This document shows, in pieces, positions 2,178 through 5,784 of a DNA stretch of 5,979 nucleotides (position 1 is its first letter; each line of letters opens with the position of its first letter). This DNA comes from Zygophlyctis sp. KS116 (taxonomy: Eukaryota > Fungi > Chytridiomycota), in NCBI GenBank assembly GCA_054661495.1, contig BAAFSQ010000460.1:1-5979 (forward strand), written 5' to 3'. The translations under genes and the position numbers were made by a program. Under the pieces are notes generated by a model. That model saw nothing but the letters and a program-made list of their open reading frames with translations. It did no database searches and was not told the DNA's origin.

Positions 2178-3518
2178 ATGCCCAGTCATCGCTTCAACAT
2201 TCCTCTATTGCCCAGAGACGGTGAGAATATTATAAACGTTGCAAAACTATTACAAAAGCCTGAATTTATAATTGATCAAGAAGATGATGACGATGAGGAA
2301 ATAGAAATAATTCCTGCTCTTGGAAGTTCAATTTCTGCAAAGAGAAAAAAGAAATTTGATCCTGAAGAAGAGTATGATTTACATGATGATTTTATTGATG
2401 ATTCTGATCTCATGTATCAGCAAATAATGGTTAATGAGGGTGAACAGGAAAAAGTATTGGAATGGAAATATGGATATTTTGCTTGGAGAGGAGATGTACA
2501 ATCATTTATTGACGAAATTCAAGAGAAAAAATCTAAAAAGATTAGACAAAGAACTTCAATGACTTCTACAATTGGGATGGGGACTCAAGCGATGGCTAGT
2601 CAGAGTCCAGTCAAGAAGAAATCGCCAGTCAAGAAAATTAAAAAGGAACTAGGAAAACCAATTTCAGGAATTTCAGGAGTCACGGAAAAAGTTGAAATTA
2701 AATCTGATGGTCTTGTTCCTCTACATCCATGGGTACAAGAGAAAATGGATTTGTTGGATCAGGAAGCTAAAAAGATTTCATGGGAAGATAAACCAAAACA
2801 ATTTCCTCAAAATTTAAAAGAAATTGCATACCAAGCAGGTATTTATTCTAATATTTTTATATATTAGCAAAAATCTCTCTAGAAACTAAAACTTACAACT
2901 CTGAACATTTTGTTAAATATCTAACAAGTATTGTACCTTATAATACATTTACAATGAAAAAATTTATAGGAAAAATGGTTATTCCTGAACAGCTGGAATT
3001 ATTGACTAAAGAGGTTTCTAAAAAATTCTAAAAAATAGGTTGATTTTACATATTCAATACTACGAGAACATTTAGAAAAAAATATTCCAGCTCCTTTTAA
3101 TAGGGAACCAGAGTATAAATTTAAATGGGATGAAGATTCAAGAGCTTTAATTTGGAATATATTATGTTTAGAGTGGGAAGTAGCAAAATTAGACAATGAA
3201 TTAAATTCTTATCAGAAATTAGCACCAAATTTCAAAGAAACCAGTGTTAGAAAGTCTGTTTATGAAAAATTAAGTACATTTTGGCCTTCAGGATTAATGG
3301 ACTCTTCAACAATTTCAAAAGAATACTCAATGATTAGAAGTCGAGTTATCAAATTAGAAAAAAGGGGAGATTTGATAGTAGATAAAACAGTCTCTGGAAT
3401 TATTTTTAGACGTGATCCATTTTCAAAGTTTACAAAGAGTAAATCTATTGAAAGTGAAACGTCTATACAGATTCCTCAAAAGAGTCTAGTCAAGTCTGAA
3501 CCAATTTGTATAGACTAA
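2178..3518 (+). CDS. HPC2: HPC2/ubinuclein-family HIRA complex subunit; join(2178..2838,2868..3013,3039..3518), 428 aa
   Basis: HUN/HRD motif YDLHDDFIDDSD...YGYFAWRG (~2373-2492). Removing two GT-AG introns gives a continuous 1287-nt frame with ubinuclein middle-domain motifs VPYNTFTMKK, KFKWDEDSRALI and RKSVYEKLSTFWPSGLMDSSTISKEYS. The first ATG is 2178; the track start at 2172 is TTG. Confidence 0.88.
2839..2867 (+). other. 29-nt spliceosomal intron 1 of HPC2/UBN (phase 1)
   Basis: CAG|gtatttattctaatatttttatatattag|CA, with a branch-point-like CTAAT. Removing it joins the HUN exon to the PYNTFTMKK exon in frame. Confidence 0.85.
3014..3038 (+). other. 25-nt spliceosomal intron 2 of HPC2/UBN (phase 0)
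   Basis: GAG|gtttctaaaaaattctaaaaaatag|GTT. It contains an in-frame TAA, and removing it restores the frame through KFKW and FWPSGLM to stop 3518. Confidence 0.82.
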
Positions 3519-3581
3519 TTTCGTGTTTTAAATGAGATTTTTGTATGTAGAATGTGGTGAAACATTTCTAGTATCTGCTTC
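3295..3581 (+). repeat. Left copy of a 287-bp perfect direct repeat (HPC2 3' end, 13-bp spacer, first 50 nt of WHI2)
   Basis: Compared base by base, it is identical to 4690-4976 (offset 1395). The flanks mismatch at 3294/4689 and 3582/4977. Confidence 0.97.
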
Positions 3582-3612
3582 AGGCAATGCGCTATCAAAA
3601 ATCCATATTTAA
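3532..3612 (+). pseudogene. Truncated duplicate of the WHI2 5' end fused to insert sequence (26 aa)
   Basis: MRFLYVECGETFLVSAS is identical to the 4927 ORF, then GNALSKIHI* is read from the insert, with the stop at 3610-3612. Confidence 0.8.
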
Positions 3613-4008
3613 ATCCATTATCCAGTGTTCTTTTTGTGAATGCTTTATAATTTTTGCTTCCACCTTGGCGAGTTGCCTTTAGATAGACATCTAGTGTCTG
3701 CCTTAAAGATTAGATCCAGGCTCCAGGTCAGACACTGGACAGGAATTCATGATAGTTTTCCAAGTTAATACACTCATCTGTGTCACAGTTCCATTAATGC
3801 TTAACAAATGCCTGCCCTTACTCATCATTCTCCATCGATCTCCTCTTGCTGCACATTCTAGAGTAAGGTGTTCAATCTACAGAGTGCACGGGTTATACAA
3901 GTAAAATCTATCAAAATTATAACGCTCCCGTATCACCGCCCTTGGAGAAAGTTTTATCGGAAGTTTCATCGGCTAAATATTATTATCTAGTGAAAAGAAT
4001 AATATAAA

Positions 4009-4293
4009 ATGCAGAGAGCCATGAAAGTATATGTATGTTTAAGTGGAGTGATGGGCCTCTATGGATTAAGTAGAGGTTACAGAGCACACTATGAAAATGA
4101 AAAAGAAAGATTAACTGGGGATAAACTTACCTATGCTGCATTTACGGGTTTCCTTTATGCTTCACCTATTTGGAATATATCTCATATGATTAAATTATTT
4201 AATCGTTTAGAAATCGAATATAAAGGATTAAATAGAGATGATTATCAGAATAATTATGAAGAATTAAATGGTTATTGTTACGACACAATTTAG
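4009..4293 (+). CDS. 94-aa hypothetical protein with two moderately hydrophobic segments, resembling small giant-virus (Nucleocytoviricota) ORFs
   Basis: Complete intronless ORF with an A-rich start context (aataatataaaATG) and protein-like composition. The pattern GLYGLSRGYR...LFNRLEIEYKGL..DDY...YEE recalls NCLDV hypothetical proteins. The viral assignment is pattern recognition only. Confidence 0.65.
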   Translation: MQRAMKVYVCLSGVMGLYGLSRGYRAHYENEKERLTGDKLTYAAFTGFLYASPIWNISHMIKLFNRLEIEYKGLNRDDYQNNYEELNGYCYDTI

Positions 4294-4309
4294 AAACAAT
4301 TTCAAATTT

Positions 4310-4338
4310 AATAAAATTCATTTTATTTTAAAATAAAA
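4310..4338 (+). terminator. Overlapping AT-rich inverted repeats just 3' of the 94-aa ORF, a possible 3'-end signal
   Basis: AATAAAAT-tc-ATTTTATT (4310-4327) and the perfect 18-bp palindrome TTTTATTTTAAAATAAAA (4321-4338); also contains AATAAA. Confidence 0.35.
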
Positions 4339-4392
4339 ATTATGTACAATCAATTCATTGAAGAGATTATTGATATGATGTTTAAGTAGTGA

Positions 4393-4692
4393 CGTTCTTC
4401 AGGTCAATACTCTCCTCATGGGTCGAGTAGTTTTATTAGTTGCTGCACTGTCACTTCTACTTCCCCTCAATGCTGTTGGGCTGTTGCACCATGGACCATA
4501 ATAGGCATAGCTATTCCGACTGGGATCTTATCTTCAGATTACAGTTGTTGTACTCAGCCTTTGTCTGGCATAACTAATATTACTGAGATTTATTGGCCTA
4601 GTAAAGTGCTTTCAGGCTCAATTCCCGTAGAGATGGGCACATCTGTAATTATTTTTTTACAATTTAAATTTAAAGATGGATTTAGAACATAA
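4393..4692 (+). pseudogene. Start-less fragment of a Cys-rich plus plant-type LRR gene (LRR N-cap and start of first repeat)
   Basis: A stop-free frame absent from the ORF track: RSSGQYSPHGSSSFISCC...QCCWAVAPWTIIG...YSCCTQPLSGITNITEIYWPSKVLSGSIPVEMG. LSGSIPxExG is the plant-specific/RLK-type LRR signature. A putative 31-nt intron (4645-4675, gtaatt...tttaaag) is followed by MDLEHN, matching LxLxxN. Confidence 0.65.
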
Positions 4693-4976
4693 TGGACTCT
4701 TCAACAATTTCAAAAGAATACTCAATGATTAGAAGTCGAGTTATCAAATTAGAAAAAAGGGGAGATTTGATAGTAGATAAAACAGTCTCTGGAATTATTT
4801 TTAGACGTGATCCATTTTCAAAGTTTACAAAGAGTAAATCTATTGAAAGTGAAACGTCTATACAGATTCCTCAAAAGAGTCTAGTCAAGTCTGAACCAAT
4901 TTGTATAGACTAATTTCGTGTTTTAAATGAGATTTTTGTATGTAGAATGTGGTGAAACATTTCTAGTATCTGCTTC
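4690..4976 (+). repeat. Right copy of the 287-bp perfect direct repeat
   Basis: Identical to 3295-3581; it continues into the full WHI2 reading frame. Confidence 0.97.
4692..4913 (+). pseudogene. Duplicated C-terminal 73 codons of HPC2/UBN, not an independent gene
   Basis: Identical to 3297-3518, the end of HPC2 exon 3. It begins at an internal Met of the WPSGLM motif. Confidence 0.8.
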
Positions 4977-5784
4977 TCTGTTATCTATTTTCCCTTGTAA
5001 TTGGGGCAGAGAAGCCATTTCAGGACCAGTGTCTTTTATACAAGATGATTCTGTAGAATTATTTAAAAAGATTATCTGTAACAAGCAGAGTCCAGTCAAG
5101 ATTAATTATAATCCTAAATTATTTCTACATCTACTGACTACATTATCTAAAATTCTAAAAAATAACAATCAAATCTATTCTTGCTTGTCAAAACAGGACT
5201 CTGGCTATGATTCTTTATCTACAATTTCACTATTAAATACAACTTGTCCCTCAAATTCAATTTTATTTCTCTCAGAAACTCTTGAATACTACTCAATGTC
5301 TAGTAAAAAGAAATATAAATTGGAAATTGGAAAATATTTAGTTGAAGAAACTAGTCTAAAATCATCATTTTACCATTGTTCAAATGAAAAAGGCCAGGAA
5401 TTACTTGAATTATTAACTGTAAAAACTAATCTAAATTCTAATCATGACTGGGGAATTCGTATTTTAGAAGAAAATACTTGCAGGATTAGATCAATGTATA
5501 TATGTAGTGTAAATGATCCTATAAACAAGTCTATACCTAGAAAATCTAATTATCAAATCAAGAATCAAAATTCTGTTATTACGCAAATTAATGAATCAAT
5601 TCAAGATTTACAATCCCATGGAGATTTTAAGGATTTTATAGATTCTAGAAAATCAATAATGAAAACAGTCTGGGAAAAATATGAATTTGAAGACACAAAT
5701 CACGGCCTTCAACTGTGTAATGGAGCAAATTTAAAAGTATGGTGTAGAAAAACTTGGAGTATAGATTTTCCAAACATATTTTAA
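4927..5784 (+). CDS. WHI2: Divergent Whi2-like protein (KCTD-type BTB/POZ fold; Psr phosphatase partner family)
   Basis: Ordered motif matches to fungal Whi2 as I recall it: FLVSASLLSIFP, VKINYNPKLF (VxFDPxxF/L), ILFLSETLEYY (IIVLREDLDFY), KLEIGKYL, QELLELL (EQHLIEML), DWGIRILEENTCRIRSM (DxWGxRxxEPNKxxIxSL) and LKVWCRKTWSID (KVWIRRVWTLE). Confidence 0.8.
   Translation: MRFLYVECGETFLVSASLLSIFPCNWGREAISGPVSFIQDDSVELFKKIICNKQSPVKINYNPKLFLHLLTTLSKILKNNNQIYSCLSKQDSGYDSLSTISLLNTTCPSNSILFLSETLEYYSMSSKKKYKLEIGKYLVEETSLKSSFYHCSNEKGQELLELLTVKTNLNSNHDWGIRILEENTCRIRSMYICSVNDPINKSIPRKSNYQIKNQNSVITQINESIQDLQSHGDFKDFIDSRKSIMKTVWEKYEFEDTNHGLQLCNGANLKVWCRKTWSIDFPNIF

Follow-up and report, generated by a model that had tools for sequence, protein, structure and literature searches.

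Positions 4009–4398 of the window (the whole stretch of DNA analysed, 5,979 nucleotides) are best read as a fragment of a giant virus (Nucleocytoviricota), likely of the Mycodnavirales IM_18 type, which was likely captured as filler together with host repeats at a repaired chromosome break, in a host that is likely a chytrid. We put the probability of this reading as a whole at about 0.7. That the fragment is of viral origin is extremely likely, and the strongest evidence for this is its gene order: a whole gene (ORF A), a spacer and the head of a second gene (ORF B), an arrangement that recurs in viral contigs. The features of the window are as follows.

2178–3518, plus strand: HPC2/ubinuclein gene, a histone chaperone subunit of ~428 aa, with two short introns
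3295–3581, plus strand: left copy of a 287-nt direct repeat, consisting of the HPC2 3′ end and the initial 50 nt of the downstream ORF
3582–3869, no strand: patchwork of multi-copy host repeat bits (~3590–3645, 3650–3740, 3740–3789 and 3805–3870)
3862–4008, no strand: segment with two start-less frames, ending in an A-rich start context
4009–4293, plus strand: ORF A, a whole giant-virus gene of 94 aa, intronless, with an ATG start and a four-helix model
4294–4341, plus strand: viral intergenic spacer, 48 nt, 6% GC, aligning through with viral spacers
4342–4398, plus strand: head of ORF B, 14 matching codons, after which the frame is broken by a small gap; cut at about codon 19
4399–4689, plus strand: piece of a host gene that is present in many copies and encodes a secreted LRR protein of plant type; frames broken, other flanks elsewhere
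4690–4976, plus strand: right copy of the 287-nt repeat, which gives the 4927 ORF its start and runs on into the right flank in runs X2 and X3

Host locus and layout of the cassette

The window is eukaryotic, as indicated by the two short introns of the HPC2/ubinuclein gene and by the HUN and UBN_AB domains of its product (Pfam, E = 3e-6 and 9e-11, respectively). The spliced model is open, with introns at 2839–2867 and 3014–3038 and one alternative acceptor. Words of the window were shared by 24 sequencing runs, 23 of which are freshwater, riverine, estuary, lake or aquatic metagenomes and one an organism run; half or more of the words were present in only two of the 24, and none of the 24 is an RNA run. 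That the host is likely a chytrid is suggested by the freshwater character of these runs and by the gene type of the LRR fragment, which encodes Cys-rich secreted proteins of a chytrid kind.

The two copies of the 287-nt repeat (3295–3581 and 4690–4976) are 100% identical and bracket a cassette of 1108 nt. Since HPC2 ends and the 4927 ORF begins within the repeat, both of these genes are intact. Within the cassette, the pieces of the patchwork, as well as 4400–4575, are matched by high-depth contigs that leave with other flanks. The depth of the LRR fragment is far above single copy, and it weakly matched LRR receptor kinases of plants (best E = 0.008). No match was found between the patchwork at 3582–3869 and the viral loci, or to Rfam across 3500–4750.

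The first-pass annotation had read the start-less frames in front of ORF A as the tail of a further viral gene. These stop-free frames (3862–3990 and 3867–4007) do exist as sequence: two such open frames occurred in 7 of 2000 shuffles and one in 247 of 2000, the region having been picked after viewing. Their interpretation as a viral gene tail is not supported: neither frame had a protein or DNA match (the large protein search covering only the 3867 frame), and they are unlike the genes located 5′ of A in viruses (superoxide dismutase in L001, L007 and L029). Run X4 has relatives of 3800 to ~3955, yet no cover of ORF A at 90%, and X3 differs from the window within 3862–4008 by a 29-nt insertion and a 4-nt deletion. 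On balance, we lean towards a non-viral origin for this segment.

Several other elements of the window were observed in passing. An intronless ORF of 285 aa (4927–5784) begins 13 nt past the HPC2 stop and has only weak Pfam matches (Spc25, E = 0.12). At 1–369, 123-nt tandem repeats lie inside an ORF with a C-terminal hydrophobic segment, and their very high depth in X1, X2 and X4 indicates that the unit is multi-copy. Two adjacent ORFs (2–940 and 1054–2067) have a similar layout, with a long S/T/P/Q-rich part, one hydrophobic segment and a short tail, and are possibly a surface-protein family. A short inverted pair near 3582 and 3671 (within 3582–3681), inside a multi-copy repeat, could represent the ends of a small TIR element; other copies run beyond its right arm.

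ORF A, ORF B and their viral relatives

ORF A was described at first pass as an intact, intronless ORF of 94 aa, and this was borne out: it has an ATG start and 91 relatives among 50% cluster representatives, 27–50% identical to it and mostly 88–111 aa long. Further relatives are P0001 and P0002, with 81 and 56% identity. When the cassette was shuffled 1000 times, an ATG ORF as long as A appeared in 26 cases; homology shows that A is a real gene. The giant-virus affiliation proposed for the protein was likewise confirmed, its best relatives being giant-virus proteins. Pattern scans of 185,579 prokaryote genomes turned up no relative, with none among 73 candidate stretches for A and none among 92 for B. 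At the level of leads, the atlas neighbour cluster of an A homologue consisted to 100% of viruses, mostly Nucleocytoviricota (score 0.81), and the atlas look-alikes for B were archaeal (0.86–0.87).

Searches of ORF A and B against Pfam, NCBIfam, PHROGs and PDB sequences were all without a match, and across 73 aligned members of the A family, Pfam returned a single weak match in one member and no recurring family. The predicted structure of ORF A has four helices (pLDDT 93.8). Fold searches gave no match (E > 0.6 in viral and PDB libraries, best Z 4.7), which does not in itself establish a new fold. The case for a membrane protein is weak, as a hydropathy of 1.6 over 19 residues is reached by only 8 of the 73 members. 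All 15 highly conserved columns of the family are preserved in ORF A, and its fit to the family profile places it 11th of 73, a rank that is partly circular because A was the query from which the family was built.

For the genomic context of A, scans yielded 33 loci. A is present in 31 of them, which belong to 23 distinct contigs (IMG/VR, 11; metagenomes, 12); IMG/VR searched with the window ORF A alone gave nothing, and the same was true of P0100 and P0010. The 21 contigs for which ORFs were listed (all but L026 and L030) are intronless and closely packed, with 24–34% GC, and the neighbours of A include PolX, thymidine kinase, papain, Bro-N, Erv1/Alr, SET, HMG-CoA reductase and minor capsid P11. 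Every A relative whose DNA was read sits on a gene-dense, virus-type contig, most of the 91 protein matches being without context. A capsid search of two short records gave no match, and neither did its controls. Among these viral genes, we observed an Atg8-like gene (L021, 14198–14689, E = 7e-5) and an HMG-CoA reductase (L008, 4373–5578). The A copy of the 199-kb contig L008 (2627–2911) has an in-frame TGA near codon 58, indicating a pseudogene or an assembly error.

In 5 of the 23 contigs, A is directly followed by B, which in viruses is 86 aa long; two of the five are identical here, leaving four viruses. The spacer between A and B is 41–44 nt in these viruses (89 in L008) and 48 nt in the window. 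The ORF that begins at 4342 in the window has 15 codons before a stop (4389), and its first 14 residues are shared with B at 13 positions in L001 and L029 and at 12 in L007 and L008. This agrees with the earlier suggestion that the second A-rich start is the head of the next gene. At the DNA level, the B head is identical to that of L001 and L029 at 36–38 of 42 nt. Two more distant copies of B that lack A match at 8 and 6 of the 14 residues. Alignment of the window with the fetched viral loci continued from within A, across the spacer, to 4398 (74% over 215 nt for L029, E = 7e-29). The viral block was first estimated at ~0.5 kb; it is indeed a viral fragment, of ~0.4 kb, with homology that extends to ~4398, past the stop at 4389. 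ORF A and the syntenic viral copies have 40–43 of 94 residues in common (~43%), whereas those copies share 60–86% with each other. On the remaining 18 of the 23 contigs, some of which lack a family assignment, A is flanked by other genes.

The exact AAAATTGA motif, a mimivirus early promoter, is located 38–45 nt before B in 5 of 6 viral loci. It is absent from the corresponding place in the window, where we found only a one-mismatch word, at chance level. The AT palindromes that had been pointed out behind ORF A turned out not to exceed chance, as the spacer folds no better than shuffled sequence (in 186 of 200 shuffles the fold was equal or better). We thus ruled out a termination hairpin.

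Which virus donated the fragment can be judged from the contigs that share its gene order. The contig of L001 (472,843 bp) matches, by IMG id and exact length, a one-contig bin that the tables of PMC13524828 file under Mycodnavirales IM_18, genus n_434, and L018 comes from GVMAG-S-1091796-13, filed as IM_18 in the supplement of PMC8575486. GVMAG-S-1035082-44 and GVMAG-M-3300017788-25 had no entry in the tables searched. L007 and L029 share the gene order of L001, and L008 is plausibly in another n_434 bin of the same sample. The tree of A, built on 59 rows and 100 columns, is mostly open (32 of its 56 inner branches). The viruses with A and B sit in a branch with 83/89 support and the window falls outside it, grouping only with P0001 (97/99), which comes from a 570-bp contig. 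The identity of only ~43%, this tree and the 18 contigs with other neighbours speak against a firm assignment; the donor was probably IM_18 or a close sister. P0001 itself has several changes disfavoured by the A family and may be another decaying endogenous copy.

The group called IM_18 appears as MY_03 in the text and as MY_18 in the tables of PMC13524828. A 2025 preprint (PMC12247965) describes IM_02 and IM_18 as families without a known host, fungi being the likely ones, and in the 2026 catalogue (PMC13524828) the fungal hosts of Mycodnavirales are predictions. In the parts of the literature that we covered, no IM_18 element in a host genome is reported, and the endogenous-element tables of PMC13524828 may already link IM_18 to a fungus. 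It is also conceivable that the fragment derives from a virus infecting some alga or protist which the organism parasitises or eats, so that the organism would not be the host of the virus. The small size of the fragment (0.4 kb), its lack of a hallmark gene and the lack of a second copy at ≥85% in X2 contigs are compatible with this, as are the indirect virus-fungus-alga links raised as a caveat in PMC13691094 and the algal hosts that a predictor assigns to some Mycodnavirales (10.64898/2026.09.08.750034). However, zoosporic fungi have been shown to be infected by the sister family of the best-matching group (PMC12247965; PMC13533422), and chromosomal capture should be easier for a virus that multiplies in that very cell. 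We regard a donor from another host as unlikely.

Junctions, copy state and origin of the insertion

Junctions and depth were mapped in runs X1–X6, of which X1 is possibly the source of the window. Near 4398, contigs of X1, X2, X3 and X6, from four studies, cross the virus-host junction with at least 31 letters on each side, and the start of A is bridged in X1, X2, X5 and X6. The transition from the cassette to the right repeat is bridged in X3, X5 and X6, and that from the left repeat to the cassette in X3; the left junction was not seen in X2. Strains diverge by 2.6–5.3% in pieces of the viral block and by 0.7–4.1% in the flanks. What had been proposed as a giant-virus piece in a host locus thus stands for 4009–4398, on its relatives, the order of A and B and the host junctions, and is unsupported for the upstream gene tail.

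The depth of the cassette was below that of the left flank in both X1 (73.6 vs 153.7, ratio 0.48) and X2 (36.7 vs 85, ratio 0.43). In X2, it equals the depth of the minor allele of a nearby two-allele bubble (52 and 39). This suggests one filled and one empty allele in X1 and X2, with the proviso that depth is a weak measure of copy number: the right-flank contig in X2 reached 436.8, which makes depth a poor guide. No second copy of the viral block was found at ≥85% in the X2 contigs, a set that is incomplete and filtered. In X3, the repeat is ~2× as deep as the cassette and flanks, which is what a single integrated copy should give.

Could the block be an amplification or assembly chimera? 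Such an origin might be suspected from the uneven depth in X1 and X2 and from the fact that no single contig in X1–X6 spans the whole window, yet X2, X3, X5 and X6 have these junctions too, with differences at the level of strains. As the virus-host junction is bridged in runs of four studies and the strains are 3–5% apart, we consider a chimera extremely improbable.

One contig from X6 joins 4976 to 3588 and thus runs from the end of the cassette through the repeat into the start of the cassette, the flanks being uncovered in the stretch mapped; it represents an array, a circle or an assembly path. If it were real, a 1395-nt unit of repeat plus cassette could exist as a circle or tandem array that moves in and out by a single crossover at the 287-nt repeat, the patchwork having been built elsewhere and having arrived whole. 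The perfect identity of the repeats and a depth below that of the flank in X1 and X2 would fit this as well. On the other hand, an assembler crossing a two-copy repeat at 3–5× depth yields the same contig, and the ~2× depth of the repeat in X3 fits one integrated copy. We doubt that the insertion arose in this way; a circle or array is compatible with capture at a break as a later event.

The arrangement of the cassette leads us to infer a repair route. Viral DNA would have been present inside the nucleus, either from an infection or from a larger endogenous element, and several pieces of 50–400 nt would have been joined or copied serially at a chromosome break. The repair would have duplicated 287 nt, so that HPC2 retained its end and the gene that follows at a distance of 13 nt retained its start. 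We propose that the insertion was tolerated because this duplication leaves both host genes whole. The allele, presumably neutral, would since have drifted and is likely on one homologue in X1 and X2, and recombination between the repeats could lose or multiply the insertion.

A different route to serial capture would be a non-autonomous transposon of the Helitron or Pack type that collected fragments, the viral one among them; the serial capture of short host fragments in the cassette resembles such elements. This is very unlikely: no terminal inverted repeat links the ends, the junction letters are not Helitron termini, the duplication is 287 nt of a host gene, and the viral block is single copy in X2.

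We judge from the sequence that ORF A is probably inert in the host, because the head of B is broken, all five changed codons among the seven listed differences between X3 and the window in ORF A are non-synonymous, and the exact AAAATTGA motif is missing. The selection test is small, as 81% of random changes in A would be non-synonymous, and ORF A itself shows no decay so far. It is also the sole unbroken coding piece in a cassette of broken pieces, retains all 15 conserved columns and is found in strains 3–5% apart, as might be expected if it were expressed from a promoter in the upstream patchwork and under selection as a new host gene. Against such a role, besides the five codon changes in X3, the divergence of the viral block is not below that of the flanks, depth suggests an empty allele, and the 81%-identical sister P0001 has several family-disfavoured changes. 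We consider it quite unlikely.

Comparison with known systems

It is well established that early-diverging fungi carry giant-virus relics; the interest here lies in a possible host link for IM_18. An IM_18-type gene order inside a eukaryote chromosome points to a candidate host lineage, which can be tested by a targeted search. To judge from the screens described in PMC13524828, approaches based on marker genes would likely miss such marker-less scraps. More broadly, and at somewhat less than even odds, the locus may be a direct trace that an IM_18 (MY_03) virus left in the genome of a freshwater chytrid, as an insertion segregating across lake populations; the family would then infect zoosporic fungi, and sub-kilobase, marker-less scraps could be mined for hosts.

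The closest published cases that we compared are the lone capsid genes of Mycodnaviridae (IM_02/MY_02) described in host context in three chytrid isolates (PMC13533422). As in those relics, Nucleocytoviricota DNA lies within a host contig with ordinary host genes. In contrast to them, the window has no hallmark gene and only 0.4 kb of viral DNA, its presence looks polymorphic, and its best matches are to the sister family IM_18/MY_03 instead of IM_02, of which no genome was identified among the fetched loci. With genus n_434 of IM_18, the window shares the order of A and then B, the size of the spacer and the head of B (12–13 of 14 aa), whereas its A is only ~43% identical and is not grouped with that genus by the tree, and the exact motif before B is missing.

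Endogenous giant-virus elements (GEVEs) comprise many kilobases and contain marker genes. Like them, the window has integrated giant-virus DNA that is inherited with the host chromosome. It differs from a GEVE or provirus in that viral homology is confined to 4009–4398, with host pieces on both sides and no capsid, polymerase, ATPase or integrase. When a double-strand break is repaired with templated or filler DNA, the insertion consists of short pieces of unrelated loci in series, together with a local duplication. The window resembles such insertions in both its serial pieces and its local duplication, and is set apart by the fact that one of the pieces is foreign viral DNA.
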